Virus record (IMG/VR): IMGVR_UViG_3300032213_000610
Span: 1-64,000 of that record
Reading direction: 5' to 3' (one strand)
DNA length: 64,000 nt
Origin: a virus
Lineage: Duplodnaviria; Heunggongvirae; Uroviricota; Caudoviricetes
Below, in pieces: positions 1 to 64,000 of the stretch (position 1 is the stretch's first letter; the number at the start of each line of letters is the position of its first letter). The translations under genes and the position numbers were made by a program. The notes under the pieces were generated by a model. The model did no database searches, was not told the DNA's origin, and saw nothing but the letters and a program-made list of their open reading frames with translations.

Positions 1-809
1 ATTTCTTTCTCTGTAGATTTACTGTGATAGGAAGGAATACCAAGTGTATCAGCTATTTTAGTAACACCACAAAATACCAAGATTCTATCTTGCTTATGTT
101 TAGCTAAGATTTCTCTTGTCTTCTCCATTTTAGCCACACTGTTCTGTATGATTCTCATTCTAGCTAGACGTAGGAACATTGTTGCTTTTCCTTGTCTTTC
201 TAGCTGATCAATCACCCAAGCATAGCTATCAAATTGTTTCTTCTCTGTACGCTTCTTCCCTTTATAATCGTTAATACGCTTATCATCCAAAGGAACCTTT
301 ATTACAGTGATTTCATAGTCTGTAATAACTCCTTCTGCAATAGCTTGTTCTATTGGATAGGTAGCTAATACATTCATTCCAAGCTCCTCATTGAGAGTCC
401 TTTCTGTAAAGCTAGATAATGTTCCTGTAAGACCAAGCACACTTATGCATTTTAGCTCCTTTACAGCCTCTATTTGTGCTTCTGACAGCAAATGTATCTC
501 ATCTAGTATTACTAGGTCAAATACACCTCCTGTGTGCTTTTTAATAGATAGGTGCGTAGTGTACGTTATATTGGGATTCTTGTATTTTCTAGTCTTGAAA
601 TCAGCTTCCCAAGCCTCCTTAATCTTAAGATCTGGATAGGCTATCAGGATGTTGATATCTTTGTCTAGTTTCTCTAATATGTTGATAGTTGTATAGATCT
701 TCCCAAATCTAGGACATAAGTTTAGAATACCAAACTCTCCATGTTTTAGGAACACCTCAGCAAACTCTTGTTGCCTCTTATCTCGTAGAGAGATTTCCTT
801 TTTTGCCAT
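1..809 (-). CDS. SF2 (DEAD/DEAH-like) helicase, 3'-truncated by window start
   Basis: Manual reverse translation from ATG (complement of 807-809) gives MAKKEISLRDKRQQEF…NLCPRFGKIYT (Walker A-like), LVILDEIHLLS (motif II DEIH), LGLTGTL (motif III). The ORF runs off the window start, so it is not in the ORF track. Confidence 0.65.
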   Translation of the reverse strand, partial: MAKKEISLRDKRQQEFAEVFLKHGEFGILNLCPRFGKIYTTINILEKLDKDINILIAYPDLKIKEAWEADFKTRKYKNPNITYTTHLSIKKHTGGVFDLVILDEIHLLSEAQIEAVKELKCISVLGLTGTLSSFTERTLNEELGMNVLATYPIEQAIAEGVITDYEITVIKVPLDDKRINDYKGKKRTEKKQFDSYAWVIDQLERQGKATMFLRLARMRIIQNSVAKMEKTREILAKHKQDRILVFCGVTKIADTLGIPSYHSKSTEKE

Positions 810-3573: not shown

Positions 3574-4290
3574 TTATAATTTAAATATATTACCAAATGA
3601 TGTTAATCCATAAGCAAACTTTCCATCTTCTACGCATGATGCATTAGAAAACTTTGTGTTTGGTAGCCTATGGTAAGTGCTAACTCCCTGATTTTCAATA
3701 TCCTTAAAGTTATGTATGTGTCCAAATAGCACTAGCTTTGGTTTCACTCTCATCACAGCTGTTGCAAGAGCTTTATCACCACACATTTCAAGTTTGTTTT
3801 CTCTATTGTATGTAAGATCACGTACACCTTTAGGTGGTCCATGTACAACTAATATATCTGTATCATCTGGAATAGTATCCCATACAAAATGTGTTTTGTC
3901 TCTAGCCTTCATAAAAGACCATTCACCAAACGTTGGTGTGATAGGGCTTCCCCATATCTTCAGACCTTCTATCTCAATAGATTCATTCTCTAAGTAGATG
4001 ATATCTTTTAATATCATATCAGAATATTCTATTTGTTTTCTATCAATAGCTGTATCATGGTTACCTGCTACAAATATCTTATACTTGACAGGCACCTTTT
4101 CATACCATTCTAAAAACTCTGTTATCTCTCTTTTAGAAGATGCTAAGAATGGACTATTAGAGCAATCACCACTATGTATCACCATATCTATTCCTTCAAA
4201 TCTTTTTTCAGGGAATTGATCATGCATACAATGGGTATCACTGATGTGTAATATGTTCATATGTATTGTTTTATTCTGCAGCCCAACCAA
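3574..4290 (-). CDS. calcineurin-like metallophosphoesterase
   Basis: Motifs in canonical order: ILHISDTHC (DxH), HSGDCSNS (GDxxD), FVAGNHD (GNHD/E), VVHGPP, FGHIHNF (GHxH). Confidence 0.85.
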   Translation of the reverse strand: MVGLQNKTIHMNILHISDTHCMHDQFPEKRFEGIDMVIHSGDCSNSPFLASSKREITEFLEWYEKVPVKYKIFVAGNHDTAIDRKQIEYSDMILKDIIYLENESIEIEGLKIWGSPITPTFGEWSFMKARDKTHFVWDTIPDDTDILVVHGPPKGVRDLTYNRENKLEMCGDKALATAVMRVKPKLVLFGHIHNFKDIENQGVSTYHRLPNTKFSNASCVEDGKFAYGLTSFGNIFKL

Positions 4291-5256: not shown

Positions 5257-7251
5257 TTAGAATAAACTTAATTGGTTCTTGTCAATATTAACTTTTCTTC
5301 TCTTACCCTCAAACTGTATCTTATGTATAATACGTTCAGCACGTTCTATGTAATAAGCATAATTGATGTTATCAAGAGGATGATCTGGTGGTAGATAATT
5401 ACATACATGCATCACCCATTCACCTGCTTCCACCTGACTAACATCAGCAGCATTAGTTGTACAATCAGGGTTCTTCACCTTTAACAGCTTTTCACCCTTA
5501 TTAGACACATAATATCTGATTAACTTATTGTACACTGTTTTTTTACCATTGGCTACTCCTTCATAATGGAAATCTTTGCTCGCTTTCTGCCTGAGACAAA
5601 AATCATATATGTTTGTATGATTATGAATGGTATCAGCCACAGGGATATCATTAACAAAATAACGCTCGAGAGCAATAGGTACAATCCTAGCTGACTTATT
5701 CTTGTGAAGCTCAAAGTCAGTGAGGAAATCACCTTTCTTTTTAATTTCTCCATTGGTTTTAATTGCTAAATAGTCATTTACTGTAGAGAATATAATCTTC
5801 TGATAATCAGTACGCTCTAATTCATACTGAGTTACATCCATCCACCACTTATTAATAGCAGTCATAGTATCAAAACTTGCATTTTTTACAAGTATTGTCA
5901 CTCCGTCTGTATTAGCAGATATTACATTAATGCCAGCTAGTTCATATGCCTCAATAAGCATTAGTAAGCTTAGCTCACCTGTAATAGTGGTGAACATAGT
6001 TAGTTGTCTATCATAGAGCCAGGATAGCATATCAGAGCTTTTACCATACACAGAGTTAACTGCAAGCTTCAATGCTCCAACAATACCTGCTATCTTCTTA
6101 TCCTTCTTAGCCAAGGGTTTAAGTTCTAGTCTCTTCTCAAACATCTGTTTGTATCCTCTAAGAAACTCTTTACCCAAATGCTGCGGATATTTACCATTGT
6201 TAATGATGATAGCTGGATAGTAAGAACTAACGTCCCAATCTATAATGAGTGTATCATCATCAGCTTCAAATATCTTGGGCTTATTCTCTGTGTGTAGCCC
6301 ACCCTTGGCAAATGTATAAGTGTTATCCTTAAACACTAATGACTCTTTAAAATCATCAGTGAGTGTGAATATCTGCTTTCTTACATGCTTTAGGAAGTCT
6401 TTTAGCTCTGGTGTCTGGAAATCCACATAATGAGCAATACAATCTTTGGCTCTCACTTGCTTTCTGAAATATCCCTTCTTTGGTAAATCACCATAGGACA
6501 TATTCTTTTCTTGGCAGTAATACTTCTTAATCATCTCATCACCTATCTTACTGTCAGAATAGTTTAAGCAAGGAATACCAAACTCGTTGTATATATCCTG
6601 TCTGAGCTCTATTTGGTTATTGCCCTTGTATAAAGGATGGTCTGTTTGACCAGTGGTAACTAAATAGAATTCATATGTGGCATATATATCATTACGACAA
6701 TAGTCAATAGTGAGCTGTATTTCCTCATCTGTCATATCAGTTTTAGTATGATGGATAGGCATTTCTTCAATGTTTGGAAGATCCATCTCAAACTCCAACC
6801 TCTTCAAGCTAACTCTACGATTCTTATTATCATAGTGATTCACTCTGAATAGGTCTATTTGTTTGAGTGTGAGCCATTCTTCTCTATACTCAGGAAATAC
6901 ATCATAGTTAGCATCATGTATTACATCAGCAGCTTTCTGTGCTATTTTAGCACACACTTCTAATGCACTTAAATCATACCAATCACCATGATTGCGTAAC
7001 ACCCACTCAACCACCTGACTATCGAAGCGTAGATTGTTATATCCCACCCAATAGTAATCAGCGTGCTCCTCTGTAAACCTGTGAAATGCATCTAATTGGT
7101 TAAAGTTTCTACTCACCTGGAATTCATACCACTGCTGTGTATCAGGATTGTATATACCTATTAGAAACAGCTCTTGCATGGTTTCTATGTCATGAACTAG
7201 TATTTTCATTATTCTCTTTTTGTTGCTCGTTAAACTTCTTCTGCTCATCAA
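5257..7251 (-). CDS. family B DNA polymerase with N-terminal 3'-5' exonuclease (664 aa; alternative start at Met-15, about 7209)
   Basis: Exo I ILVHDIET. Exo III-like YCRNDIYATYEFY. PolB motif A DWDVSSYYPAII (cf. DxxSLYPS). Motif B KLAVNSVYGK (KxxxNSxYG). Motif C region ISANTDGVTI. KxY-like KKKGDF. Confidence 0.8.
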   Translation of the reverse strand: MMSRRSLTSNKKRIMKILVHDIETMQELFLIGIYNPDTQQWYEFQVSRNFNQLDAFHRFTEEHADYYWVGYNNLRFDSQVVEWVLRNHGDWYDLSALEVCAKIAQKAADVIHDANYDVFPEYREEWLTLKQIDLFRVNHYDNKNRRVSLKRLEFEMDLPNIEEMPIHHTKTDMTDEEIQLTIDYCRNDIYATYEFYLVTTGQTDHPLYKGNNQIELRQDIYNEFGIPCLNYSDSKIGDEMIKKYYCQEKNMSYGDLPKKGYFRKQVRAKDCIAHYVDFQTPELKDFLKHVRKQIFTLTDDFKESLVFKDNTYTFAKGGLHTENKPKIFEADDDTLIIDWDVSSYYPAIIINNGKYPQHLGKEFLRGYKQMFEKRLELKPLAKKDKKIAGIVGALKLAVNSVYGKSSDMLSWLYDRQLTMFTTITGELSLLMLIEAYELAGINVISANTDGVTILVKNASFDTMTAINKWWMDVTQYELERTDYQKIIFSTVNDYLAIKTNGEIKKKGDFLTDFELHKNKSARIVPIALERYFVNDIPVADTIHNHTNIYDFCLRQKASKDFHYEGVANGKKTVYNKLIRYYVSNKGEKLLKVKNPDCTTNAADVSQVEAGEWVMHVCNYLPPDHPLDNINYAYYIERAERIIHKIQFEGKRRKVNIDKNQLSLF

Positions 7252-7345: not shown

Positions 7346-7549
7346 TTAAAATACTATTGAAGGTGTAACAAATCCAAATGAAATAGGTCTAGGCATCTCA
7401 TAAATATCAATATCTTTGTAATTGTCCATGTATGTACTAGGACACTCCTCAAAGTCATTAATAATGTCTTGTCTTGTGCCAAATGCCCATAAGTCTTGTC
7501 CTTTATATACTACCATGTATATTTTTTCTTCTTGTTTCTTTGATTTCAT
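7346..7549 (-). CDS. hypothetical early protein (67 aa)
   Basis: ORF in a tightly packed minus-strand array. Confidence 0.4.
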   Translation of the reverse strand: MKSKKQEEKIYMVVYKGQDLWAFGTRQDIINDFEECPSTYMDNYKDIDIYEMPRPISFGFVTPSIVF

Positions 7550-7550
7550 A

Positions 7551-7748
7551 TTAATCCTTTTTAAATAGTTCTACAATCTTTTGAAATACACCCATTACAA
7601 ACAATCCTATGTATGCTATAATACCAAGGGTGAAGAAAGCTATTTTCATCTTCCGTTCATGTACCACAGGATTAACCTTCCTACTAGTCTTCTTAGTATC
7701 TCCCACACTATGATTGTTAATATTATTGTTTTCATTTGATTTTGTCAT
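7551..7748 (-). CDS. small membrane protein (65 aa)
   Basis: Hydrophobic helix IAFFTLGIIAYIGLFVMGVF. Confidence 0.4.
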   Translation of the reverse strand: MTKSNENNNINNHSVGDTKKTSRKVNPVVHERKMKIAFFTLGIIAYIGLFVMGVFQKIVELFKKD

Positions 7749-7977
7749 AATATTTGTTAATTACATCATGTTTCCATGTGCCTGTGTGTCCATCTTCATC
7801 AAAAGCGTACATCATAGCATCTGTTAACATTTGTTTCTCTTCATCAAATAATATATCTAAATTCTCTAATATCCATGTATCAAAATCATTCTGATTCATT
7901 ATGGATCGTTGCTTAATTATTTTACCTATAACTGTCATAACTAAATTAGTTAATGGTGTCAATAAACTCTTGACCAC
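7732..7977 (-). CDS. hypothetical early protein (81 aa)
   Basis: ORF in the array, small overlaps with neighbours. Confidence 0.4.
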   Translation of the reverse strand: MVKSLLTPLTNLVMTVIGKIIKQRSIMNQNDFDTWILENLDILFDEEKQMLTDAMMYAFDEDGHTGTWKHDVINKYYDKIK

Positions 7978-8134
7978 GACTAATCAAATCAATTAGAACA
8001 TGTATTTCTTTTGATTTTAATACACCTTCTACATCATCGTTAGTCCAATAGTCTAAATATTTTGCTCTTGGTATTGCATGCCATAAACCTTGGTAATGGT
8101 TAAAATGGAATAGGTAGTCATATAGTGGATCCAT
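7946..8134 (-). CDS. hypothetical early protein (62 aa)
   Basis: ORF in the array. Confidence 0.35.
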   Translation of the reverse strand: MDPLYDYLFHFNHYQGLWHAIPRAKYLDYWTNDDVEGVLKSKEIHVLIDLISRGQEFIDTIN

Positions 8135-8136
8135 GG

Positions 8137-8325
8137 CTATTGTTTTTTTATCTTTTCAACTTCACTGTCTGCTAATTCAAATGCTGATATAAGTAGGTCT
8201 CTAAACTGATTACCTTCCTCTGATAGTAATACAGAAGCTAAGCCTGCTATTAATGCTGTGTTTTCTCCTTCAACATCAAGTGTAACCTTGGTGTCTGTAA
8301 CGTTTATTAGTATTTTACCTTCCAT
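8137..8325 (-). CDS. hypothetical early protein (62 aa)
   Basis: ORF in the array. Confidence 0.35.
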   Translation of the reverse strand: MEGKILINVTDTKVTLDVEGENTALIAGLASVLLSEEGNQFRDLLISAFELADSEVEKIKKQ

Positions 8326-8334
8326 ATTATTTAT

Positions 8335-8571
8335 TTATTCTGTTTCGTTAAATGCTTTTATTACCTCTGGATTTGTGCTTAACTGGTCATAAATGTACTC
8401 ATATCTCATATTTTGGTACTTTAATGGCACAATCTCATCATATAAACTATCTGATTTTGATTGTATTGCAGACATTTCAAGCTCCATATTATTCTTTTGC
8501 TTCATTAATAAAGCCATAAGAATAACTAATACACTTATAACTCCTGATAAGGCTATGATTATATTTCTCAT
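8335..8571 (-). CDS. small membrane protein (78 aa)
   Basis: N-terminal TM helix IIIALSGVISVLVILMALLM. Confidence 0.4.
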   Translation of the reverse strand: MRNIIIALSGVISVLVILMALLMKQKNNMELEMSAIQSKSDSLYDEIVPLKYQNMRYEYIYDQLSTNPEVIKAFNETE

Positions 8572-8759
8572 AGGTTATGGGTTTCGTTGTAGTATTTTTC
8601 TGAACTAAAGTTCCAATTCCAACCACTTTCAAAAGCAGTTTTTATCTGCTCTTTTTCTTTTTCTAGAAATTGAATTTTATCTTCGTCAAAATTTGTCAAC
8701 TCGTTAATGTAATAAGCCTTTTCTAAATACTCAATAAATTCTTGCATTGCTGTTTTCAT
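8568..8759 (-). CDS. hypothetical early protein (63 aa)
   Basis: ORF, 4-nt overlap with the downstream gene. Confidence 0.35.
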   Translation of the reverse strand: MKTAMQEFIEYLEKAYYINELTNFDEDKIQFLEKEKEQIKTAFESGWNWNFSSEKYYNETHNL

Positions 8760-8762
8760 AGG

Positions 8763-8948
8763 TTATTTGTTTTGGTTGTCTATTTTTGGCTCACTTCTAA
8801 ACATATGTTCTGACAATTTATTTAACTCCTCAATAACTTCATCAGGTGTTTTATTGGTTCTACATTCAGTAGTAATAATTGCCAATGCTGCCATTAATAA
8901 TCTACCCTCATTAATTGAGTAATTAATTTCATTTAGGTCTTGTATCAT
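8763..8948 (-). CDS. hypothetical early protein (61 aa)
   Basis: ORF in the array. Confidence 0.35.
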   Translation of the reverse strand: MIQDLNEINYSINEGRLLMAALAIITTECRTNKTPDEVIEELNKLSEHMFRSEPKIDNQNK

Positions 8949-8959
8949 AGGTTATTTGT

Positions 8960-9271
8960 TTATGCTTCAACAAGCTCTGTTTGTTTCAATAGCTCATCCA
9001 TTGAGAATGTTATATCAGAACAATCTTTAATTAATTCAATTAGTTTCTTTAATGCTTCCTCTGTAAATGCAAATCTATTGGCTAAGAAATATTCATATGG
9101 TAATTCTCTGTCTGTTAGCTCTATTTCAGCTAGCTGTACACCTAATTCCTTCTGTGGTAATACAGTGACAGTGAATATCACTGTGTATGTGTTACCCTTC
9201 TTAACCCATTTGTTTGCTGGTATTTCTTTTGGCTTACCACCGTCATTTATGCAGATTGCTTCTACGCTCAT
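8960..9271 (-). CDS. hypothetical early protein (103 aa)
   Basis: ORF. The antisense +ORF 8940..9323 is judged spurious. Confidence 0.45.
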   Translation of the reverse strand: MSVEAICINDGGKPKEIPANKWVKKGNTYTVIFTVTVLPQKELGVQLAEIELTDRELPYEYFLANRFAFTEEALKKLIELIKDCSDITFSMDELLKQTELVEA

Positions 9272-9279
9272 ATTAGTTT

Positions 9280-9327: not shown

Positions 9328-9338
9328 CATTGTTTTAC

Positions 9339-11309: not shown

Positions 11310-11314
11310 GTTTG

Positions 11315-54000: not shown

Positions 54001-57000
54001 TGCTCCTGTAGAAGGTTTCTCTCAAGATGTACTAGCTCCTCATCATATACGTGCTAATAAGTTTGGTGCTAACTTCTATGATCTTCCTGGGAAAGATAAC
54101 TTCCGTGGTGTTATTGTAACATCAACTAATGAAGCTAAGATTGGCTTACCTGGATTAACACAATGGTTAAAGACTCAGGGAACTAATGCTGCTAGTATCA
54201 AACCAGAAGAAACTATTGCTTTAGTTATAATGGGAACTGATCCTATTACTAATGAAAGATTCTTTGTAGGTGTTAATGGTGAAAGACTAGAAAACCCTAC
54301 ATTAGAAAACACTATATATCAAGTGTTCCCTAAGACTCTTACACAGTCAAATGGTGACTCTATGTTTAGAGTTGATAATGATACAACAGAACAATACACT
54401 AAAGAATATAAAGCTTGGAGAGAAAGCACATTAAAGAATCCTTCAATTGACTTATATAAAATAGGAGCATCGTTTGGTGTTCCTGATAGAATTCCTTCAG
54501 CTTCTATACCTGTAGTTAGTTCTGGTTTAATATCAGCTGATGATTTAAATACTAGAAAAGTTATTGGTATTCCTACAACTGATGGTGCTGTTGTATATGG
54601 TTCTTCTACATTTGAAGGTGCTAAGGGTGTTCCTTTATTATATACATCTAATGGATTAATTAGACTTAATAATAGAAAGAATACTAAAAAAGAAGCTGAG
54701 CTTATATTTGATGTTATTGAGAGATTGGCAAGCAATCTTATTAAAGATAAAAACCTTAAGTCTGGTGAGTCTCAAGCATTATACAATTGGTTAAAATCAG
54801 TTGTATACTGGGGAACTCCTCAAGATGCTAATGGTAATAGAAAGCCTGCAGCTTATAGTAGCATATTCTTTGAGAACATGCAACTATTAATTGGTAAGGA
54901 AGAAACTAAGTTTTCTATCAAGCCTTCTGACCTCAAGCAAAACAGAGAAGCTATCGTTGATAAGTTACAGGAAATGTACAACAACGTTAACTCTACACTT
55001 ATTACTGGTGGTCAAACAAAGCAATGGAATAAGCCATACACTGAAATTACAGGTATTGAGGGAGATAACATATTAACAAGAGATTGGAAGAACTATCAAA
55101 CCTACTTGCTATCTAGTGAGTCACTTCCTCTTTCAACAAGTGTTAGACCTCTTAACAATGAAGAAGATGTTAATAGAAAGGGTATCTACTTCACTGTATA
55201 TGATAAGAAGGGTAATACATCTAATGAGGTTCCTGCTGCAAAACCAGTTAAGAAGGAAACAGCTCCTGCAGCTCCTACAGCTACAGCTGCCCCAAAAGGA
55301 TATGTTATAGATGGAAAAACAGAAAATACTATTTCAGTTCCTAAACTGGGAGATGTATCTTTTATTGTTGACCCTAAAGCATTTGAAGAGTCTAATGGTA
55401 CAAAGGGTGTTGCATTAAGCGTTCCTGAAGTAACATTAGAAATCACAATAGGTAAGTTATTAAGTGTTCCTAACTCTGGCATTACAGAGGAAACCTCTGA
55501 TGAAGAAGCAACAAAGATTGCTGAGAACGTATTAAGGAACATTATTATTAAAGAGATTAAAGCTCAATTAGCTCCTGCTGCTCCAGTTGTTCAACCAACT
55601 GCTGCCCCTGTTTCTACAGATGGTGCTAAAGCTACATTTGATAGTGCCATAGATCAAATCAATAAATCTTTAGGTAATAAAATAGGAACAGGGATATATG
55701 AAAATTCTCCAAGAATCATTTTTGAATTTGATGGTAAAGAACCATCATCTCCTAGTTTCTTGACAGAACCTATAACTAAAGAAGGAACCCTTTACAGAGT
55801 TAAAACTTCTAGATATAATGTTTTAATAGATGACACATTTAATATTAAACAAGTAGTAAGTGATAAAGGGAAAGTGTATACTGTTAAAGAGGATGAACTA
55901 TCTACAGTTGATATACAATCTCCACTATTTGATCAACCAAAAACAACAACTGTTTCTACAGAGTCTGTAGATAAGAAAGCTGATATAGAAAAGAGAAGAC
56001 AAGAAGAGTTAGAACCTATTGGTGATAAAAAGTTTTTAGATTCTAAAACTGAAGTATCAAGAATAACTTATAATGTAGAGAACGCTACCACTGATACTAG
56101 TGCTAGTGGTAATATAAAAGTAACTGTTATTACTTATAAAGATGGTAGTAAAAGAACAATAACTACTGTTGAAGATGGTTCTAAAACTCCATTAAGTGAT
56201 ACGTATGATGGTTCATTATCAGATGAAAAAATTGTACAAACTGCTTCTGGTAATGGAACCATTGTTGGAAATGGAGTAAAAGAAGATACAGTAAAATCTG
56301 CTCAAGAGAATAAAATAGATAAAATCAATGCTAAGTATGATGCAGAGTTAGCTGCTTTAGAAGGACAACCTGCAGTTGCTGTACCTGCTTTAATATCTCC
56401 TGTTATACAGTCTAGTTTAGATATGCTTTCTAAAGCACAGGAGTTGTTAGATGCCCAATCTAAAAAGTTTGAAAAGTACATACCTGCTGTACAGAAGTAT
56501 TTAGATACTAAAAAACAGCAGCTACAAGATCCAAAGCTTACAGTTGAACAACGTGAAAAAATAGCTAAGACTATTGAGATGGATATGAAGATACCGATTG
56601 TATCTTTAAACAACTTAGTTCTTGAATTTGCTCCAAATGGTCGTCCAGAAAAAATATATATCAACAATCCTGAAACTAAAAAGAATTATTACTTTACTGC
56701 TTTCTTTCAGGAAAATGGAGAAAGAAACTTTGAAAACAATCCAAACTATGCTTTTAATCAAAATGAAAGGTTAGGACAGGGAAGTGATTATAAATATAAT
56801 ATTGTTTCTAAAAACTCTATCATACCTGTAGAAGGTCTTAATCTGAGAGAAGCTGAAACCCTAAGACATTTTTTATCTGGAGCTGATTCAGGGGCTACTC
56901 AGTATGCAGCTCATGATACTGATAATCTTGGTCAAGGTCTTTTAATGGGTGTAATTAAACACTACTTTATAGAGAAGGCTGCTGGTAGAATGCAACGTGA

Positions 57001-60000
57001 CTATTGGGATTATCTACAAGATCCTCGTAAAGAGATGCGTGAGCAAATTGAAGCTATGGAAGCCCAACCAGTTGCTGCTCCTGTTGCTCCTACACCAAAT
57101 GTATCTGCTAACTTACAAGCTAAAATTAATGCTAGAAAGAAAGCTGGTCCAACTAAGAGAGGTAGTGAATATAGACTTAAAGTTGAAGATCAATTAAAGA
57201 AGTTCCAATCAGAAAACTGGAGTAAGGTTGAGAAGTTTTTAGCTAAAGCTTTACCAAACGTTCCTGTATATAGAGTGAAGAATCTTATTCAAGCTACTAA
57301 TGGCAAACAAGCTTGGGGTATGCTTAAGGATGGTGCAATCTATCTATATGAGAATGCTGAGGTGGGTACAGTGTATCACGAGGTGTTTGAGTCTGTATGG
57401 AAAATGTTTACAACAGCAGAAGAAAAAGCTTCTATAATCAATGAGTTCAAAGGTAGAAAAGGAAGCTATACAGATGTATTCACAGGTAGAGATATCAAAT
57501 ACTCTGAGGCTACAGATCAAGATATTAAAGAGAAACTTGCTGAAGAGTTCAGAGATCAAATGTTATCTAAAGAAGCTAAGAAAGATAAGTCATTGATTTC
57601 CAGAATATTCTCACAAATCATAGACTTCATCAATAAATTCTTTATTGGAGATGGTGCACAAGAGAATACAGATAAGCTATTCGAGAACATTGGTTCTGGC
57701 TATTATGCACAATACTCTCCATTACATGGAGCCCTATCTTATGCTAAACAAGGAATCATAGATATTGAGGATGCTGTAGGTAACGATGATGCTGAATATA
57801 GAATCACTGGATTCACAGGTACTCAGTTACATGATGTCATCCAACACATGACCTATACAGTGGTTAAGGATTTGTTTGAAACAAACGAAGGTTTGTTTAA
57901 CATCCCTAATCTAAACAAGACTCAAGTCTACTCAAGACTCCAAGATGAGATGGGTGATTTGATTGCTGATAATGTTACTGAGCTAGAGAAAATGACAGAT
58001 GTTTCTGATGAAGAAAGAAGTGTTGCTATTGAGGCACAGAATACATTATATGCTAACATCCTAAACAACTGGGAATCTATTGTAAACAAACACGAAGAAT
58101 ACCTTAAATCTTATTCTATTGAGTTTGATGAGAACGATGAGTTGTCTTTAGGAGATGAAAAAAGCAAAGATGATCCTTATGGTGATCCTTCTAAGATAGA
58201 CCACATGAAGAAGGCTAATGCTGCTATTAAATTATTGTTAGCTAGTCTTCCTGCTGTATACAACGATGGTTCAGAAAGATTATCATCTATTGGTGGCTAT
58301 ACATTAGTACCAATGAGTGAAGCTTACATAGGAGTGATGAACAACGTAAGTAGTTCAAAGACTATTGATGACATGGTTAGTAAGCTAAAACAAATGTCTG
58401 ATAATGATCCTAAGTATACAAAGCTTTACAATCGTTTAACTAAGTTAAAGGAAATCAGTCAGTTAGATAATCAGAATGACATTAAGTTATTATCTGCATT
58501 CTGGAGAACATTCAAGAAGCAATCTCCTACAGTTAAGAACGTATATGTTCTAGAGAATGGTGATGTGCAGGTGGGTGATTCTAACTTTACAGCTGCTGCT
58601 AGACAAGTGGAAGAAGGATTTGCTAATAACATTATTAATGCTGTTAACAACGGAAACAAATATATTACATATTCAGCCACTAGTAACTCATACATAGGTA
58701 ATGAAGATTCTATTAAGGACGCAAAGCTTGATAGTTTACTAGCTCAAGTGAACTTCTTAAAAGAGTTTGGTATTGAGTTTGACTATGATAGACTAGTTAA
58801 AATGCGTGAGAAGACTACATTCTCAGAAGCAGTTAATGGTATTAGAACAAGTATTGCTGGTGGTAAACGTTTAATGACTGTAAGTGGTAGAACTCTTGAC
58901 ATCAACAAACGTCTATATCAACTATCTGAGATTAAGGCTATTATGGATAACCCAGAGTTCAGCAGTACATTCTATAATGTTAATGGTGAACTTACACAAA
59001 CATTTATTGGTACAAACGCAGCTAGTGATCTATTTGATGTCCTATCACAGATTAATAATATCAATGAGTTACAGGGTACACAATACGAATATTTATTAAC
59101 GGATACATTTGCTAAGAATTCAAACATGCTTTATAGAATGTTTGATCGTACAAGTGGTAATCGTATTGCAGATACAGAAGACTTAATGCAAACAGCTTAT
59201 GCTGATGGTACTGTTGATGAAGATAGTGGTAAGCAAAAGCAGTCTTCTAAATTAAACTATAAAGAAAGATTATTACAAGAACTTAACCTTAACCTTTCTG
59301 GTTACTACTTAAACCTAATCCCTGGAGATGCAACTCTTGAGTGGATGATGAATATGGGTAATCCTATTTCTAAAGATGACATTCTCCTTAATCTCAATCG
59401 TGTATATGATATATTCAAAGGATATTTCATAGATGAGATGAACCTAGCTAGAGAAAATCGTAATGTAGCAAAAGATAGAGATGCTTTAGAGTTACGTTTC
59501 TTCAAATCTATTCTTGGTGAGAAGTTGCATAACAATATAATGGCTGAGGAAGGTGAGGTGTTTACAGCAGAAGAGATTTACAATGATAACAAAAAAGCTA
59601 TCGATGATGCTGTTGCTAAATACATCACACTTCAAAAGGACAGATTAGCAACCTCTCTAGAAGATTATGGTATTATGTCTGAAGTGGGTAATGGTTATAT
59701 GGTGGAAGGTTTATCTTTTGCTAAAGAAGATGTAGTTCCATTTGATGAAATGGACAGACAGTTAAAAGTGTTATCTATCAATTACATGATTAATAACATT
59801 GAACTTCATAAGATATTATACTCAGATCCTTACCAATACTCAGATGAGCTTAAACGTATTAAAAGCTTTAACTCACCTAGACAATCTATTGTAAGTGGAT
59901 CTGATTCATTTAATAGTGCTGCAAATAAGATTTGGAATAAGGGTGTGGCTGAAGATAGTATTGGATACACAGACTTCAACAAAGACTTCTTTAGATCTGT

Positions 60001-63000
60001 TACATTAGGAGATGTTATTGCAACTTCTGACCTACCTGATTATGGTTCTTTTGAAGAGACTGATGGTGGTGGTATGATTACCATGAAAGCTTATCGCAAC
60101 TTCTTAATACGTGCTGGTGAGTGGGATGGTAATAAAGAAAGACAATATAAGTATGATATTGCTTATGAGAAAAAGGTTAAGGGTATTAAGTTATCATCTG
60201 TTGATAGGAATGCTTTAAAGAAGGGTAACCCTGGAATTAAGAGTGCTTACACTCCAATCAAACCTATTGTATCTGGAAACAAAGCTAATGGTAGAAACTT
60301 TAATGATATTGTATTAGATAAGTTTGCCCTTTTCCCATTGAGTTTCAGAGTGTTACATGAAATGAATCCTGAATCTAATGCTGTCAAGTTGTATAACAAG
60401 ATGCAAGAAGAGAATGTGGATTATGCTGTATATAATAGTGGTAGAAAGGTGGGAGCTGAGGCTGTTCATGAGTTATATAAGAATGGTAAGTTTAATGAGG
60501 CTCCTTTCCAAACAGAGAAGCAAACAGAAAATAAAGACTTAAAGCAAGGGATTATTAATATTCCATTTAGCATCATGAGCATTCAGTCTGAGGTTCCTTC
60601 TAAAGATGATGGTATTGTTACTAGAGGTTCTCAAATGACTAAGCTTGTTACATTAGACTTCATGGATGCTGGTGTACCTATTGACTACAATCCAACTGGT
60701 ACATTCACAGAACGTTATATGGAATGGTTTGGTCTTTCTGAATCAGAAAAAGAAGCAAAATCTCCTCTATATAAAGAGATTAAGAACAACCAACAAATCC
60801 TAGAGGATATGATGGAGGTTGGTATAGATTCTCTACTTAAGACATTTGGTATTACTAAAGTTGATGGTGGATATAAGATTGATGATTTTGAAAAGGTTGT
60901 AGAAACTTTACGTAAAGAGTTTACAAAGAGAGAAGTTAGTGATAATTTAAGTGCTGCTCTTAGAGGATATTCTACTGGTAATGTAGTGGCTGAAGCAACT
61001 CCTGCATACAAACAAATTAGAAACATTCTATATTCTATTGCTGATAGAGAAGTTATTAGCCCTAAGGTTAGTGGTGGTATGAAGGTACAAATCCCTTCTA
61101 CACTATTAGAATCTGAAAGAATCAAGTCTAAAAAAGGAGCATACACATCTGATGTATTGAAGTTCTATGTAGATAAAGATGGTCAGCGTGTGTGTGAGAT
61201 TATGGTGGGTAGATGGTTTGAATCAGACTTATCTGATGAAGATCTTCTTAAGAAATTAAACAGCACTTCTGAAGGACAAAGAATATTAGAAGGTGTTGCC
61301 TTCCGTATTCCTACACAAAAACAAAACTCTATTGATGTATTCAGAGTGGCTAAGTTCCTTCCTAAGGAGTTCGGTGATTCTGTTGTGATTCCTTCTGCTT
61401 TAGTGAAGAAGGTTGGATCTGACTTTGATATAGATAAATTATCAATCTACCTTAAGAACGTAGATGATAGTTCTAGAGGACTACCTAGACTTATATCTGT
61501 TAATGGTAAGGGTAAGTCAAACCTAGAGAATGCATACATTGAATCTTTAGAAAGGCTTATATCACATCCTTTAAACTTTAAGAACCTAGTTAAACCTAAC
61601 TCTGCAGATCAATTAAAGAAGTTGTCTGGTGAGATAACTGAGAAGTTAGGATTTGGTACATTTGATTATAAGGATCCAGGTAACATGTTAGATAGACGCT
61701 TTATGTCTAGACTTAGACATGCGTTTGTATCTGGTAAGTATGCAATTGGTATTGCTGCTGTTAACCAAACAAACAACTCCTTGAACCAAAGACAACCTAT
61801 CTATATTGACTTTGAAGGAAGATCTGGACTATTAGATGATGGTGATTTAAAATGGCTAGGTGATGGTAAGATTAACTTCCCTGAATACAATAAGATTGAG
61901 ATACCTGGAAAAGGTGTATTCCCTACATTATCAATGACTAGAAATGCTGAGAGAAGTGAAAAATTCCCTCAAGGTGAATACATCTCTGATATTCTTGGTC
62001 AGATGATTGATGGTTATGTGGATATCTCTAAGGGTCCATGGATCATGGAATTAGGTGCTACACCAAACGTAGCTTCTACATGGATGTTCTTAACTAAGGT
62101 GGGTGTGCCTATTGAAACTGTTGCTTATTTCATGAACCAACCAATCATTCGTGACTACTTACGTACGTTAGAAAAGAATGGTCAAAGCTGGTTGTTTAAT
62201 GATAGAACAAACAACAGTATAAAAAGAAAGTACAAAAGTAATAAGATTACTGTTAAAGAGATGCCTTCTCTTGAGAAGTTACAAAACACTGTAGGTAAGA
62301 AAGAACTAACTCAAGTTGAAAAAGCTGAACAAACATTCATATTAAAAGAGTTCTTGAAATACGCTAAGATGGCTGAACAGTCATTCAACGTTACCCAAGG
62401 AACTAACTTTGATACAGCTTCTTTCAATGATCCATTCTTGGTATTCAAGAAGTTGAAACAACTAATGAAAGCTAGAAACACAATCTTCACTTCTGTGGAT
62501 GATATGTTAGACAATGCTTTCATTGGTAAGTTGAAAGATACAATTGTTGAACTAAGAGATGCTTTAGCTACTATTCTTAGAGCAGACCAAGGTAATGTAA
62601 GAGAAGTTATCCAAAAAGTACTCACTCCATACGTAGGTATGAATGATAGAGACTTTGTTAAGACCTCTCAAAGAGTTGTAGCTACATTATTTGACTGGGC
62701 TGTTCAAACACAGAATGGATTAAATGCTGAAATTACAGACATCCTTCTTAACAAGGATACTAATGTGGCTAAGGAAATCAGTGAGTTTGTTAAACCTATA
62801 TTGGATCCTGCAAATGAAAATCATCCTTTACATAACAATCAGGTATTAAGAATATTACAACCTTTGTTTGGTAAGCCAGGTGAGGTGAATAACATTAAGA
62901 TTAAGAACAAAGCTAATAAGGTGTATGACCAAAATCAAATCACATATGCTTTTGTTGAATTAAAAGAATACTTAAAGGGTGAGGGTAAGATTGATTTGTA

Positions 63001-64000
63001 TGACAGATTAGTAACATTGTCTATTCTACAGTCTGGTTTAAATGAGTCTAATATATCATTTACATCTCAGCTTCCTTATGAAGATATTGTAACACAATAT
63101 AATAATGTAATTGCTGACCTACCTGCAAACGCAAACTTAGATACATTTGCTAGCTTGAATGTGTTTGAAAGAAACTTCTGGAACTTTGATGATGTGGTTC
63201 CACATCACAAGGCTACTTACAGATTTGATTTCTATACACAACAAACCTATTACAATGAAGAGATGAAATTTGGAAGTGGTATCTATGATGCAATGAGAAA
63301 AAAAGATCTTCCTTTATTATTGAAGGTGAGATCAGGTAGCAAAGAAGCAAACTATGATGTAATTGTACATACGTGGGAAAAAGAAATCTCTACTTCTGAG
63401 AAGAGAAAAATGAGAAAGGATGGTGACTACTCATATAAGAAAAAAGGTTTATTCAAGTATGTAGGAATCATTCCTAGTGCTGATGGCTTATCTGAAACAT
63501 ATTTATACAAGCTTATCAATGCTTGGGGTGATGGTACAAAAGCTAATGAGTTCTACACAGATAACAGAGAGTCTGTTATAAACAATGGTTTTGAAAAAGC
63601 TGATGAGTCTATACCAGATGATGTTATTCTACAATACTTCGGTGTTACTAAAGAGGAAATGGTTTCTCCATTACCAGAAGAAGTAGCTGTGTCTCCTGAG
63701 ATACAAACCTCAAACGTAGTGGTTAATGCTGTTCCTAAGGAGAATGAAATCATAGGTAACCTTGCTATGCAGAGTGACAATGTAACTAGAATCAAGGCTG
63801 GTACTAAGACTATCACCAACAGAACTGAGAACTACAGAGATGGTGTATATGCTCTTCCTGATGGTTCAAGAGTTGAGTTAACTAACCTTGGTCAGTTCCA
63901 AGTGGTGGGTGATAGGGTGATAAGTGATAGAGTGGTAGATGGTGAAACTAGTTACTCCCTAGATGAGTTTGCTAAGAAGGAAGGATTTCAAGACTGGCGT
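51089..64000 (+). CDS. giant ORF (at least 4304 codons, 3' end beyond window) with beta-prime-like double-psi beta-barrel motif; candidate virion-packaged RNA polymerase polyprotein
   Basis: Manual codon-by-codon reading from ATG 51089 to 64000 meets no in-frame stop. Length 12,912 nt is a multiple of 3. No other ORF of 60 aa or more occurs on either strand here except short antisense or out-of-frame ones. Contains …GVAFRIPTQKQNSIDVFRVAKFLPKEFGDSVVIPSALVKKVGSDFDIDKLSIYL… at 61291-61440, plus coiled-coil and A/P-rich linkers. Confidence 0.7.
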   Translation, partial: MPGTDLYSTQDNVLPTNKIMEVGSPKVSGPMNLFVESGERRADYLPPLPEQIAPTVTTKELYDNRKFGLYNPNKTEEDYAYGQSALDKAGNGIAKLAGTTASTIVNNTVGLLYGIGAATVNQRFSSLYDNEFFKRMDAASEEMRNMFPHYYTEAEKKDPLALKSVFTGNFLWDKIVSNLGYAAGAAVTAYGATAALEALQLSKGLVAAGRGLQALEATEAGIAEGRGMAGIVQALKNPRSVASKLGQGLESLGTIEAGAQASKATQLLSSYLGISGEAGMEGFQNAKQFRENAIAKFKKENGGLEPTGQDLQNIQDAATSVGNWSYGLNVALLTGTQYVQLPKIFGSTYAGEKKILNNVIFKDNLWKSSLPEKGFGKFLYKTGKVGSLFFNTAEGFEEGAQFAIGEGTQNFFNKKYRSGDQTSFWNSLGGLLMPGGEGVLGYGTGQALTTDEGLENILIGGLSGALMTSGVVGTKRTESGATVPTMFQTGKIGERGFTGYGGERGRFTEEATKALNSAKVTDLIDSVNRAMTINEDREKTLRQGDILQSKDLETDYMLNYLLPRIKYGGETIFETELDAIRQKAATDAGFGELKSAGTANENDTQEAFIARANNIQAMAKTVTENYDKFKTKYAGLAKTKEDGTPELDADGNLQRKYDDATVDKMVYTASKIFDYNTRIPALTTKLSTSNVDVTTILGEINFTGKPTVESVEEALKTINDLNETDSNKTELKTSLQDVIELALRRNKFIDEFNNIEKNPEKYKEGVDETITKGDTVKIKQFDTGDKGKIVSKEIEIGKEYSLANPLANVGGKLQFAPKLTVLSKTLRGEFEVRLPNGERAFLSPSDFKNYQLFGASEDTSTLEDILDKAINKVLSKSKYNDVVKPTENKLEYINSLNNSELVDEIENEFRAQSEEYLNESAKEQEAIESANLEKELVETQDVDNVPTADFDSGSFDPSPKKTDQQVVDSTSAPVEGFSQDVLAPHHIRANKFGANFYDLPGKDNFRGVIVTSTNEAKIGLPGLTQWLKTQGTNAASIKPEETIALVIMGTDPITNERFFVGVNGERLENPTLENTIYQVFPKTLTQSNGDSMFRVDNDTTEQYTKEYKAWRESTLKNPSIDLYKIGASFGVPDRIPSASIPVVSSGLISADDLNTRKVIGIPTTDGAVVYGSSTFEGAKGVPLLYTSNGLIRLNNRKNTKKEAELIFDVIERLASNLIKDKNLKSGESQALYNWLKSVVYWGTPQDANGNRKPAAYSSIFFENMQLLIGKEETKFSIKPSDLKQNREAIVDKLQEMYNNVNSTLITGGQTKQWNKPYTEITGIEGDNILTRDWKNYQTYLLSSESLPLSTSVRPLNNEEDVNRKGIYFTVYDKKGNTSNEVPAAKPVKKETAPAAPTATAAPKGYVIDGKTENTISVPKLGDVSFIVDPKAFEESNGTKGVALSVPEVTLEITIGKLLSVPNSGITEETSDEEATKIAENVLRNIIIKEIKAQLAPAAPVVQPTAAPVSTDGAKATFDSAIDQINKSLGNKIGTGIYENSPRIIFEFDGKEPSSPSFLTEPITKEGTLYRVKTSRYNVLIDDTFNIKQVVSDKGKVYTVKEDELSTVDIQSPLFDQPKTTTVSTESVDKKADIEKRRQEELEPIGDKKFLDSKTEVSRITYNVENATTDTSASGNIKVTVITYKDGSKRTITTVEDGSKTPLSDTYDGSLSDEKIVQTASGNGTIVGNGVKEDTVKSAQENKIDKINAKYDAELAALEGQPAVAVPALISPVIQSSLDMLSKAQELLDAQSKKFEKYIPAVQKYLDTKKQQLQDPKLTVEQREKIAKTIEMDMKIPIVSLNNLVLEFAPNGRPEKIYINNPETKKNYYFTAFFQENGERNFENNPNYAFNQNERLGQGSDYKYNIVSKNSIIPVEGLNLREAETLRHFLSGADSGATQYAAHDTDNLGQGLLMGVIKHYFIEKAAGRMQRDYWDYLQDPRKEMREQIEAMEAQPVAAPVAPTPNVSANLQAKINARKKAGPTKRGSEYRLKVEDQLKKFQSENWSKVEKFLAKALPNVPVYRVKNLIQATNGKQAWGMLKDGAIYLYENAEVGTVYHEVFESVWKMFTTAEEKASIINEFKGRKGSYTDVFTGRDIKYSEATDQDIKEKLAEEFRDQMLSKEAKKDKSLISRIFSQIIDFINKFFIGDGAQENTDKLFENIGSGYYAQYSPLHGALSYAKQGIIDIEDAVGNDDAEYRITGFTGTQLHDVIQHMTYTVVKDLFETNEGLFNIPNLNKTQVYSRLQDEMGDLIADNVTELEKMTDVSDEERSVAIEAQNTLYANILNNWESIVNKHEEYLKSYSIEFDENDELSLGDEKSKDDPYGDPSKIDHMKKANAAIKLLLASLPAVYNDGSERLSSIGGYTLVPMSEAYIGVMNNVSSSKTIDDMVSKLKQMSDNDPKYTKLYNRLTKLKEISQLDNQNDIKLLSAFWRTFKKQSPTVKNVYVLENGDVQVGDSNFTAAARQVEEGFANNIINAVNNGNKYITYSATSNSYIGNEDSIKDAKLDSLLAQVNFLKEFGIEFDYDRLVKMREKTTFSEAVNGIRTSIAGGKRLMTVSGRTLDINKRLYQLSEIKAIMDNPEFSSTFYNVNGELTQTFIGTNAASDLFDVLSQINNINELQGTQYEYLLTDTFAKNSNMLYRMFDRTSGNRIADTEDLMQTAYADGTVDEDSGKQKQSSKLNYKERLLQELNLNLSGYYLNLIPGDATLEWMMNMGNPISKDDILLNLNRVYDIFKGYFIDEMNLARENRNVAKDRDALELRFFKSILGEKLHNNIMAEEGEVFTAEEIYNDNKKAIDDAVAKYITLQKDRLATSLEDYGIMSEVGNGYMVEGLSFAKEDVVPFDEMDRQLKVLSINYMINNIELHKILYSDPYQYSDELKRIKSFNSPRQSIVSGSDSFNSAANKIWNKGVAEDSIGYTDFNKDFFRSVTLGDVIATSDLPDYGSFEETDGGGMITMKAYRNFLIRAGEWDGNKERQYKYDIAYEKKVKGIKLSSVDRNALKKGNPGIKSAYTPIKPIVSGNKANGRNFNDIVLDKFALFPLSFRVLHEMNPESNAVKLYNKMQEENVDYAVYNSGRKVGAEAVHELYKNGKFNEAPFQTEKQTENKDLKQGIINIPFSIMSIQSEVPSKDDGIVTRGSQMTKLVTLDFMDAGVPIDYNPTGTFTERYMEWFGLSESEKEAKSPLYKEIKNNQQILEDMMEVGIDSLLKTFGITKVDGGYKIDDFEKVVETLRKEFTKREVSDNLSAALRGYSTGNVVAEATPAYKQIRNILYSIADREVISPKVSGGMKVQIPSTLLESERIKSKKGAYTSDVLKFYVDKDGQRVCEIMVGRWFESDLSDEDLLKKLNSTSEGQRILEGVAFRIPTQKQNSIDVFRVAKFLPKEFGDSVVIPSALVKKVGSDFDIDKLSIYLKNVDDSSRGLPRLISVNGKGKSNLENAYIESLERLISHPLNFKNLVKPNSADQLKKLSGEITEKLGFGTFDYKDPGNMLDRRFMSRLRHAFVSGKYAIGIAAVNQTNNSLNQRQPIYIDFEGRSGLLDDGDLKWLGDGKINFPEYNKIEIPGKGVFPTLSMTRNAERSEKFPQGEYISDILGQMIDGYVDISKGPWIMELGATPNVASTWMFLTKVGVPIETVAYFMNQPIIRDYLRTLEKNGQSWLFNDRTNNSIKRKYKSNKITVKEMPSLEKLQNTVGKKELTQVEKAEQTFILKEFLKYAKMAEQSFNVTQGTNFDTASFNDPFLVFKKLKQLMKARNTIFTSVDDMLDNAFIGKLKDTIVELRDALATILRADQGNVREVIQKVLTPYVGMNDRDFVKTSQRVVATLFDWAVQTQNGLNAEITDILLNKDTNVAKEISEFVKPILDPANENHPLHNNQVLRILQPLFGKPGEVNNIKIKNKANKVYDQNQITYAFVELKEYLKGEGKIDLYDRLVTLSILQSGLNESNISFTSQLPYEDIVTQYNNVIADLPANANLDTFASLNVFERNFWNFDDVVPHHKATYRFDFYTQQTYYNEEMKFGSGIYDAMRKKDLPLLLKVRSGSKEANYDVIVHTWEKEISTSEKRKMRKDGDYSYKKKGLFKYVGIIPSADGLSETYLYKLINAWGDGTKANEFYTDNRESVINNGFEKADESIPDDVILQYFGVTKEEMVSPLPEEVAVSPEIQTSNVVVNAVPKENEIIGNLAMQSDNVTRIKAGTKTITNRTENYRDGVYALPDGSRVELTNLGQFQVVGDRVISDRVVDGETSYSLDEFAKKEGFQDWR

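Follow-up and report, generated by a model that had tools for sequence, protein, structure and literature searches.

The window analyzed herein, a 64,000-nucleotide stretch of DNA from a tailed virus (positions 1 to 64,000 of the IMG/VR record IMGVR_UViG_3300032213_000610), holds its genes in two divergent blocks, one for replication on the minus strand and one for virion assembly on the plus strand. The strand switch lies at 13070-13135, and from 13136 on only the plus strand is used. The plus-strand block runs from genes for the terminase, portal and capsid through those for the tail to a giant open reading frame (ORF) at the right-hand end, in which a module homologous to gp47 of the crAss-like phage crAss001 is fused to a virion-type RNA polymerase (RNAP). 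Near-identical contigs in IMG/VR are 111-115 kb long, which provides an estimate of the genome size; two examples of full genomes of the species are IMGVR_UViG_3300044716_000090 (111,328 bp) and IMGVR_UViG_3300044614_000224 (114,588 bp). We conclude that the window very probably comes from a crAss-like phage of the lytic, short-tailed type and represents ~57% of its genome, with ~43% lying beyond it. We are similarly confident that this phage belongs to no named family but to a branch of the extended crAss-like assemblage that is deep and unclassified.

A first-pass annotation, made from the letters of the window, had described an AT-rich, crAss-like genome with poly-Thr linkers, several giant proteins and no Shine-Dalgarno sequences, in which a minus-strand replication block with a family-B DNA polymerase (PolB) and two helicases faces a plus-strand TerL-portal-capsid-tail block. 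All of these features were recovered here. The G+C content of the window is 33-38%, and a 4-5-nucleotide Shine-Dalgarno core precedes only one of 49 starts, as compared with 10.7% of random positions. Poly-Thr/Ser tracts occur in four ORFs (starting at 25854, 29191, 30064 and 34089), and the giant proteins comprise ORFs of 1677, 1522, 1279 and 857 amino acids (aa) besides the giant ORF that is open at the window end. The two helicases and PolB were recognized through matches to ResIII, DnaB_C and phrog_1252, and the terminase, portal and capsid genes through PHROG and Pfam matches at 15846-23969, with the tail genes following. The standard code is used throughout, with no need for stop-codon reassignment. 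Neither tRNA genes nor matches to Rfam families were found in the 64-kb window. A megablast search of 25 kb of the window against GenBank phages returned no match, and an exact 60-mer from the window end had none in IMG/VR.

The head genes on the plus strand begin with the one for TerL, the terminase's large subunit (15846-17876; phrog_6681, E 3e-86), directly followed by a P22-like portal gene (17876-20461; PF16510, 49 bits; phrog_6547, E 1e-101). In tblastn searches, TerL matched 126 phage records and the portal protein 155, at identities of 25-40%; essentially all of these were crAss-like phages or unclassified relatives, namely Lightbulbvirus and Leptolyngbya phage Lbo-JY46 (PP438436, unclassified Caudoviricetes). 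The identities of TerL were 39.6% to Lbo-JY46, 33% to phi4:1 and 25-29% to Crassvirales. The major capsid protein (22416-23969) is of the crassvirus type. It matches PF23898 (Crass_capsid, E 6e-29, 101.3 bits) in an alignment that spans residues 25-509 of 517, and it shares phrog_11589 with g091, the capsid protein of phage phi14:2. Just 5' of the capsid gene lies a gene for a 421-aa protein (21116-22381; phrog_16294, E 7e-9) in the position of crAss001 gp31 and phi14:2 g092, with a weak tblastn match to crAss001 gp31 (E 0.007). A gene for an SPFH/Band 7 domain protein (20464-20994; PF01145, E 1e-27) stands between the portal and pre-capsid genes, an odd location for such a domain.

Downstream of the capsid gene, the tail genes could likewise be named one after another. 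Tail ring protein 2 (R2, 31978-32706; PF25702 CrAss_Ring_2, E 4e-17, 63 bits) falls in phrog_9863, as does g074 of phi14:2, and tail ring protein 1 (R1, the 'tail tubular protein', 33188-34111) matches PF24228 (CrAss_Ring_1, E 7e-11, 42 bits). Between them is encoded a 158-aa IHF/HU-like protein (32706-33182), which is in phrog_12177 together with phi14:2 g073, the 'IHF subunit', and which matches crAss001 gp42 by tblastn (E 1e-4). The 1677-aa muzzle ('tail stabilization protein', 34089-39122; PF25731 crAss_MUZ, E 2e-36, 126 bits; phrog_37948, E 1e-100) follows R1; its crAss_MUZ match is limited to the N-terminal ~320 profile positions and does not confirm the crass-fold domain itself. In Lbo-JY46 the muzzle homologue is a single ORF, and its C-terminal end has a homologue in a 288-aa ORF of the window (39134-40000). 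The 1677-aa and 288-aa ORFs, which are in different frames, jointly match one Lbo-JY46 ORF of 1,654 aa as well as phrog_15100 at both its ends, and to judge from these alignments the muzzle homologue of the window looks split in two ORFs. Near its C terminus, the 1677-aa protein also contains poly-Thr tracts, as well as a Cys-rich repeat of 10 aa in three tandem copies (nucleotides 38583-38672).

The Pfam families used here were built from the cryo-electron microscopy atlas of crAss001 and have a curated gathering cut-off of 27 bits. Four crassvirus-specific families exceed it in the window, namely the capsid (101 bits), R2 (63), R1 (42) and muzzle (126) families. The multi-ring tail barrel of paralogous proteins (R1, R2 and R3/4) is considered a conserved, defining feature of crassviruses (Bayfield 2023, PMC10172136), and two of its rings, R1 and R2, are thereby present. 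An IHF/HU gene lies between them, and a second HU gene begins at 14357. The capsid, the TerL/portal pair, the muzzle and a transcription block of giant proteins, one with a two-barrel DxDxD RNAP, are further crassvirus features of the window. The conserved, uncharacterized genes 74 and 75 of crAssphage would have counterparts in the window if they are the ring and post-capsid genes. The comparison of TerL, portal and capsid called for by the first-pass annotation, which had reserved the case of markers that cluster with a different phage order, was thus made by tblastn, Pfam and PHROGs; its outcome was crAss-like, and no different order emerged.

The giant ORF (51089-64000, plus strand) extends for 4,304 aa to the window end. 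Its full length of 4,518 aa was read on an ENA/JGI contig that encodes an identical upstream protein. Searches of the giant ORF against PHROGs, Pfam and PDB sequences gave nothing useful, and its homology surfaced only by tblastn and BLASTP, by a family profile built from 24 giant ORFs, and by comparison of folds. By tblastn, the C-terminal half matched 123 phage records, of which essentially all belong to crAss-like phages; the annotated RNAP genes of phi14:2 (g066), crAss002 and cr111_1 are among them. By BLASTP, residues 2895-3457 aligned with residues 863-1373 of phi14:2 gp66 (E 2e-18). The RNAP core (residues 2895-3689, nucleotides 59771-62155) contains the catalytic motif DFDID (nucleotides 61421-61435) within the sequence GSDFDIDK at residues 3443-3450, which aligns with the identical motif at residues 1359-1366 of gp66. 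All three Asp residues of DFDID are invariant in 24 related giant ORFs, in agreement with the giant RNAP-motif ORF of the first-pass annotation.

An AlphaFold2 model of residues 2800-3900 (mean predicted local distance difference test score (pLDDT) 78.6, predicted TM score (pTM) 0.73) shows a predicted polymerase-core fold whose best match in the PDB, according to Foldseek, is the virion RNAP of phi14:2 (6VR4_A, E 6.6e-28, query TM score 0.60). The next matches are plant RDR2 two-barrel polymerases, and no further PDB entry matches with an E value as good as 0.001. The likeness of gp66 to two-barrel polymerases of the RDR2 type is already in the literature (PMC7886860).

The model bears directly on the possibility that the window comes from an unrelated podovirus with a virion RNAP and that its likeness to crAss-like phages is superficial. 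N4-like phages (Schitoviridae) pack a very large RNAP in the capsid and inject it for early transcription; in N4, this RNAP has a single subunit and resembles that of T7. Such a phage would fit both the podovirus-like portal of the P22 type and the large gene for a virion-type RNAP with which the structural block ends. However, the polymerase model has the two-barrel fold of gp66, matching the phi14:2 enzyme and then RDR2 rather than a T7-like enzyme, the capsid, ring and muzzle proteins belong to crassvirus-specific families, and no N4-like phage is among the TerL, portal and RNAP matches listed. We therefore regard an N4-like origin as having a vanishingly small probability.

The two halves of the giant ORF have different counterparts in crAss001. 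The family profile matches crAss001 gp47 with E 2e-68, in segments near both ends of gp47, and the homology, also seen by tblastn, places the gp47-like part in the N-terminal half (nucleotides 51089-57661). In the C-terminal half, the same profile matches gp66 (E 5e-33) and crAss001 gp50 (E 2e-23). It found no similarity in the 2,748-aa ORF of Lbo-JY46, in gp67 or gp65 of phi14:2, or in gp49 of crAss001. Because the N-terminal half matches gp47 and the C-terminal half matches gp66 and gp50, the giant ORF is a gp47-like module fused to a gp50/gp66-like polymerase. In crAss001, gp47 is a 262-kDa 'RNA polymerase-associated' virion protein, and gp47, gp49 and gp50 were all detected in virions by mass spectrometry (PMC10172136).

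A single ORF of this length could in principle be an artefact of assembly or sequencing that merged a gp47-like gene with an RNAP gene, given that the two modules are separate genes in crAss001 and phi14:2 and that the protein database yielded only fragments of up to 1,731 aa. The latter were obtained with 1,000-aa queries, and gene lengths were therefore taken from IMG/VR loci. In these loci, one ORF of 3,760-4,830 aa spans the junction in 32 of 32 relatives, at identities of 24-82% over the junction region; the ORF before it has ~810-960 aa and the ORF after it ~1,390-1,860 aa. Moreover, the ORF is uninterrupted in the window, and the gene recurs after an identical upstream protein on independent contigs, with 4,518 aa on the ENA/JGI contig and cut by the contig end in Logan. 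The RefSeq genome of cr6_1 also has a collinear gene of 4,400 aa. A merging artefact is accordingly most improbable, and the fused gene is read here as genuine.

The first-pass annotation had judged the giant ORF to be much larger than the characterized examples. This holds against phi14:2 gp66 (2180 aa) and crAss001 gp50 (2412 aa), but not against annotated Crassvirales genes such as that of cr6_1. Given the 4,400-aa gene of cr6_1 and the 32 relatives of 3,760-4,830 aa, the size is unexceptional, and the giant ORF represents a fusion of a type already known from these phages rather than a size outlier. RNAP genes of crAss-like phages of up to ~6,000 aa are on record (PMC10136315).

The giant ORF contains three Ala/Pro-rich linkers. 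A model of the N-terminal 800 aa, based on 13 sequences, is nearly all alpha-helical and of low confidence (pLDDT 54, pTM 0.36). An insert of ~355 aa (residues 1638-1992, nucleotides 56000-57064), bounded C-terminally by an Ala/Pro-rich linker (residues 1992-2003), has no counterpart in IMGVR_UViG_3300044614_000224, whose giant ORF is 86% identical, and through this insert the length varies within the clade. From this comparison of sequences, it seems that modules come and go in the N-terminal half of the giant protein. Some metagenomic homologues of the RNAP core (P0023, P0027 and P0037) carry PF08719 (NADAR/YbiA, DUF1768).

The minus-strand block opens, at the left edge of the window, with a superfamily 2 (SF2) helicase of the SNF2/ResIII type (1-809; ResIII, E 1.6e-5, 25.3 bits with a cut-off of 22.5; phrog_16, E 3e-14), of which the first ~270 of ~362 aa lie inside the window. 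It is accompanied by a DnaB-like replicative helicase (981-2045; PF03796 DnaB_C, E 2.6e-16; phrog_19, E 2.6e-17), a calcineurin-like metallophosphoesterase (3574-4290; PF00149, E 1e-14; phrog_1649) and a 650-aa PolB (5257-7209; phrog_1252, E 2e-145). The DnaB and SF2 helicases and PolB expected of a crAss-type replication block are thus all in the window. A Pfam scan of the 650-aa polymerase gave no match; nonetheless, the PolB motifs are legible in its translation, namely VHDIET (exonuclease I), DWDVSSYYP (motif A), KLAVNSVYG (motif B) and NTDG (motif C). Its closest homologues are ~32% identical and scattered over many unrelated phages. PolB thus carries no lineage signal, which agrees with the fact that crAss-like phages are known to exchange their polymerases.

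Genes past the left edge of the window can be seen in L064, an IMG/VR relative with a 99% identical DnaB. There, the full SF2 helicase homologue (362 aa) also carries Helicase_C, and it is joined by an AAA ATPase (AAA_24, 21.9 bits with a cut-off of 27) and by proteins with DnaG-type zinc-ribbon, UDG-like and GHKL-ATPase matches, several of which fall below their cut-offs. The GHKL/HATPase_c domain is found in a 771-aa protein (17490-19805 of L064) within the replication block. These genes fit the replication set of crAss-like phages described by Yutin et al. 2021 (PMC7886860).

The rest of the minus strand, from 7346 to 13069, is occupied by ~20 small ORFs of 45-186 aa. Pfam and PHROG scans assigned none of them to a family, and they are likely early or accessory genes. 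Three of the small ORFs, of 78, 63 and 61 aa, stand in tandem (8335-8948) and have nearly the same sequence just 5' of their starts (..AACAAATAACCT ATG); they may be paralogues or may share a common translation signal.

The position of this phage within the crAss-like assemblage was approached through trees of TerL, portal and capsid, which were built by neighbour joining from few taxa, with midpoint rooting and no outgroup, and which left out Crevaviridae, Darmviridae and Zeta. The nearest cultured phage is Lbo-JY46, with identities of 39.6% in TerL, ~29% in the portal and ~27% in the capsid. In the portal tree, Lbo-JY46 and the Epsilon phages form a clade (91% bootstrap) that does not include the window clade, and the same is true of the capsid tree (100%); in both, the window clade is a separate deep branch. 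The four crassvirus Pfam families, the gene order and the RNAP fold together support the crAss-like architecture. As regards the closer affinity to phages of Cellulophaga and other Flavobacteriia suggested in the first-pass annotation, the crAss-like gene order is indeed that of phi14:2, but the closest relatives turned out to be Lbo-JY46 and, in TerL, the Epsilon/Lightbulbvirus phages.

Several observations weigh against this placement or against parts of it. Identity to classified Crassvirales is low (19-27% for TerL, 18-28% for the portal and ~18-19% for the capsid), and BLAST alone does not link the capsid to classified Crassvirales. In the TerL tree, the window clade, together with Lbo-JY46, phi4:1 and csAssE-Sib, is split from Intestiviridae, Steigviridae and Suoliviridae with 100% bootstrap support. 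The match to the ring 3/4 family stays below the cut-off (16.9 versus 27 bits), and no primase lies in the window; the primase match, to Zn_ribbon_DnaG in a 340-aa ORF of L064, is weak (E 0.002, below cut-off). Pfam and PHROG scans of the window ORFs, which leave ~43% of the genome beyond the window, showed no PD-(D/E)XK nuclease. Finally, the support for packaging or activity of the giant protein consists of sequence, model and analogy.

The TerL tree raises the possibility that the phage is a member of the Epsilon crAss-like group (Lightbulbvirus phi4:1/phi17:2 and crAssE-Sib). Apart from Lbo-JY46, the TerL of the window is closest to phi4:1 (33%) and csAssE-Sib (28-29%), and its grouping with them, apart from the ICTV-recognized families, has full bootstrap support. 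The Epsilon phages also share the TerL-portal-capsid order, and a structural protein of phi4:1 matches the N terminus of the giant ORF. However, Epsilon phages have no DNA polymerase, genomes of ~144-159 kb and a highly divergent RNAP that was first reported absent (PMC7886860, PMC11054128), whereas the window has PolB and a canonical DFDID polymerase, and its near-identical contigs are 111-115 kb. The capsid of the window passes the Crass_capsid cut-off, but those of Epsilon phages fail it (no match for phi4:1 and 18.5 bits for csAssE-Sib), and the portal and capsid trees exclude the window clade from Lbo-JY46 plus Epsilon with 91-100% bootstrap support. Membership in the Epsilon group therefore appears quite improbable, and a deep branch outside the named families remains the preferred placement. 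Lightbulbvirus is outside Crassvirales in the NCBI/ICTV taxonomy, and phi17:2 is counted by Yutin et al. 2021 in the Epsilon group of the extended assemblage (PMC7886860). Since the closest TerL relatives, Lbo-JY46 and Lightbulbvirus, stand outside Crassvirales in the taxonomy, formal membership of the order is left open.

More tentatively, and with somewhat less than even confidence, the window clade may represent a new family-level lineage between the named Crassvirales families and Epsilon/Lbo-JY46, in which the fusion is ancestral or recurrent, Epsilon and Lbo-JY46 having lost or radically remodelled the polymerase. The clade, apparently of freshwater origin, comprises more than 450 IMG/VR stretches, with genomes of ~111-115 kb, and it keeps PolB, the canonical DFDID polymerase and the fused gene that Suoliviridae share. 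It is a lineage common in environmental viromes and unclassified, and should be useful for rooting and delimiting Crassvirales. That all core crassvirus parts are kept while TerL groups with Epsilon may also help to date the fusion, splitting or loss of the virion polymerase. With the structures of crAss001 and phi14:2, nearly every large ORF of the window can now be named, and the giant ORF is explained.

Between the muzzle genes and the giant ORF, three large ORFs of 1522, 1279 and 857 aa (40000-51086, plus strand) lie where crAss001 has its cargo proteins gp45/gp46. None of the three matched Pfam families or PDB sequences; the 1522- and 857-aa ORFs had no PHROG match, and the 1279-aa ORF (44587-48426) had weak ones. 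There are partial matches to ORFs of Lbo-JY46 in corresponding positions, and the 1279-aa ORF holds a Gly-zipper hydrophobic segment. From their position, we infer that they are candidates for ejected cargo proteins. The 1522-aa ORF (40000-44568) contains four copies of the sequence (K/E)DGGWL(S/T)K(F/Y), at residues 36-44, 337-345, 693-701 and 1513-1521, the fourth copy ending one residue before the C terminus, and a related KEDGGWVSN is present in the 1279-aa ORF. This DGGWL repeat motif could serve as a signal by which the cargo proteins are processed, docked or targeted.

A possible course of infection can be drawn by analogy with phi14:2 and crAss001 (PMC10172136, PMC7886860). The capsid would hold the DNA together with the cargo proteins, and a ring barrel of R1, R2 and probably R3/4, with the muzzle at the tail tip, would form a long tail channel and its gate. 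The 1522-, 1279- and 857-aa cargo proteins would exit first, partly unfolded. The giant polymerase, likewise partly unfolded, would pass the tail ahead of or with the DNA; together with a partner encoded just downstream, it would be ejected and would refold in the cell. There it would transcribe the early genes, plausibly the small minus-strand ORFs, and replication by PolB and the helicases would follow, and then late expression. Packaging, ejection and a specificity for early genes or their promoters are thus predicted for the giant protein from the behaviour of its relatives.

On indirect evidence, the host is probably a member of the Bacteroidota, and probably a freshwater one, for example of the Chitinophagales or Cytophagales; the habitat is probably fresh water. 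Scarce Shine-Dalgarno sequences and A-rich leaders are the pattern of Bacteroidota. Positions -14 to -10 before the start codons of the window are strongly enriched in A, and the near-total absence of Shine-Dalgarno sequences combined with such leaders agrees with a host of this phylum. In GTDB, ten contigs have a terL gene whose product shares 47-85% identity with that of the window, and six of these contigs are in bins of Bacteroidota or Kapaibacterium (two Sediminibacterium, two Cytophagales, one Bacteroidota and one Kapaibacterium). Several names of these metagenome-assembled genomes suggest lake metagenomes. The promoter-like sequence TTTG-N17-21-TAnnTTTG occurs at seven sites in the window, as compared with 2.6 expected from shuffled sequences. 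The Bacteroidota -7 motif, TAnnTTTG, by itself is found at eight sites in ~3.5 kb of upstream gaps, as compared with 0.8 per kb overall, with no clear enrichment, and for that reason the promoter evidence for the host is weak.

Two findings argue against such a host and for one outside Bacteroidota, for example a cyanobacterium. Lbo-JY46, the nearest cultured relative, is recorded on the cyanobacterium Leptolyngbya, and the other four of the ten bins are non-Bacteroidota (Clostridium/Clostridiales, Aquiluna and Betaproteobacteria), phage binning being weak evidence. In addition, cyanobacteria also use Shine-Dalgarno sequences sparingly. However, the identity of TerL to that of Lbo-JY46 is just 39%, while close relatives are found in the Sediminibacterium, Cytophagales, Bacteroidota and Kapaibacterium bins, and the G+C content of 35%, the A-rich leaders with almost no Shine-Dalgarno sequence, and the excess of TTTG...TAnnTTTG sites all point away from it. 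A host outside Bacteroidota therefore seems unlikely, and one within that phylum is preferred.

Some further features of the plus strand complete the inventory. Just 5' of the main plus-strand block is a non-coding stretch of ~650 nucleotides (13355-14001), in which the longest listed ORF has 89 aa (13653-13922, with a GTG start); on an identical contig, gene callers put an 80-aa gene there. The stretch contains a GC-rich hairpin (CCCTCCCC...GGGGTGGAGGG, ~13633-13662) and two promoter-like sites, TTTG-N-TACCTTTG (TTTG-N17-21-TAnnTTTG), one of which ends 12 nucleotides before the ATG at 14002. The small ORFs at the start of the plus strand include the gene of an HU/IHF-like DNA-binding protein (14357-14707; PF00216, E 1e-8, 35.7 bits with a cut-off of 22.4), 5' of TerL as is gp14 in crAss001. 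A 111-aa ORF (15511-15846) that abuts terL, in the place of crAssphage gene 86, is by its position only a candidate for the small terminase subunit; at the corresponding place in csAssE-Sib stands an ORF of 112 aa labelled 'putative terminase small subunit' (PMC7886860). Past the capsid gene, a 322-aa protein (24130-25098; phrog_16383) matches the post-capsid gene of cr118_1 by tblastn (E 2e-12) and, by position, is a candidate counterpart of crAss001 gp33, the auxiliary capsid protein. The next gene encodes a candidate tail ring protein 3/4 (25095-25826; PF25710 CrAss_Ring_3_4, 16.9 bits, below the family cut-off but aligned end to end; phrog_15924). Five virion or tail-fibre-like proteins of 388, 185, 373, 282 and 160 aa (25854-30546; phrog_31752, phrog_8763 and phrog_8469), three of them with poly-Thr/Ser, precede an Mre11/SbcD-like exonuclease (30728-31978; phrog_704, E 6e-46), which takes the place of the metallophosphatase g075 of phi14:2.

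Among cultured phages, Lbo-JY46 is the closest in sequence. Its structural block is collinear with that of the window, including R1, R2 and a muzzle homologue, and like the window it passes the cut-offs of Crass_capsid (119 bits), CrAss_Ring_1 (77) and CrAss_Ring_2 (49). Unlike the window, it has a large tRNA array, and its gp47-like module is a separate 1,552-aa ORF. The next, terminal ORF, of 2,748 aa, has a GNAT domain, with no detectable RNAP similarity or internal DxDxD. A literature search found no paper that names this phage. If its host record is right, virions of the crass type occur beyond the phages of Bacteroidota, and as a cultured cyanophage with crassvirus-type capsid and rings it is perhaps the more interesting lead for phage taxonomy.

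A parallel to the fused gene among classified phages is in cr6_1 (Afonbuvirus faecalis, NC_055894, Suoliviridae), whose single 4,400-aa gene is collinear with the giant-ORF profile from ~1,830 to ~4,300 and has GSDFDVDK at residue 3468, as compared with 3443 in the window. A 1,561-aa ORF follows it, as in the relatives of the window. On the other hand, its N-terminal third has no detectable similarity, its TerL is 26% identical, and its giant gene has 57 in-frame stops under code 11 and needs reassignment, whereas the window uses the standard code.

A further parallel is provided by the Bacteroides gut phage crAss001 (Kehishuvirus primarius), which shares with the window the structural gene order, the capsid, R1, R2 and muzzle proteins, an HU gene before TerL and an IHF-like gene beside R1, and in which each half of the giant ORF has a homologue, gp47 and gp50, respectively. 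It differs in having a tRNA array, which is absent from the window, and in that its genes for gp47 and gp50 stand apart, one on either strand, instead of being fused. The marine phage phi14:2 (Akihdevirus balticus, Steigviridae), which infects Cellulophaga, resembles the window in gene order. In both, TerL, portal, pre-capsid and capsid genes, three or four small virion genes and fibre genes succeed one another, and the shared order continues through the metallophosphatase/exonuclease, R2, IHF, R1, muzzle and cargo genes to the RNAP, with the SPFH/Band 7 gene after the portal added in the window. The capsid g091, R2 g074 and IHF g073 are in the same PHROGs and in the same order as their counterparts, with marker identities of 18-25%. 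Its RNAP core is homologous, with an identical GSDFDIDK, and the fold of 6VR4 is that of our model. The polymerase of phi14:2 is a separate protein of 2,180 aa, encoded after a separate 1,797-aa gene, whereas in the window one ORF of 4,518 aa comprises the polymerase together with a gp47-like half.

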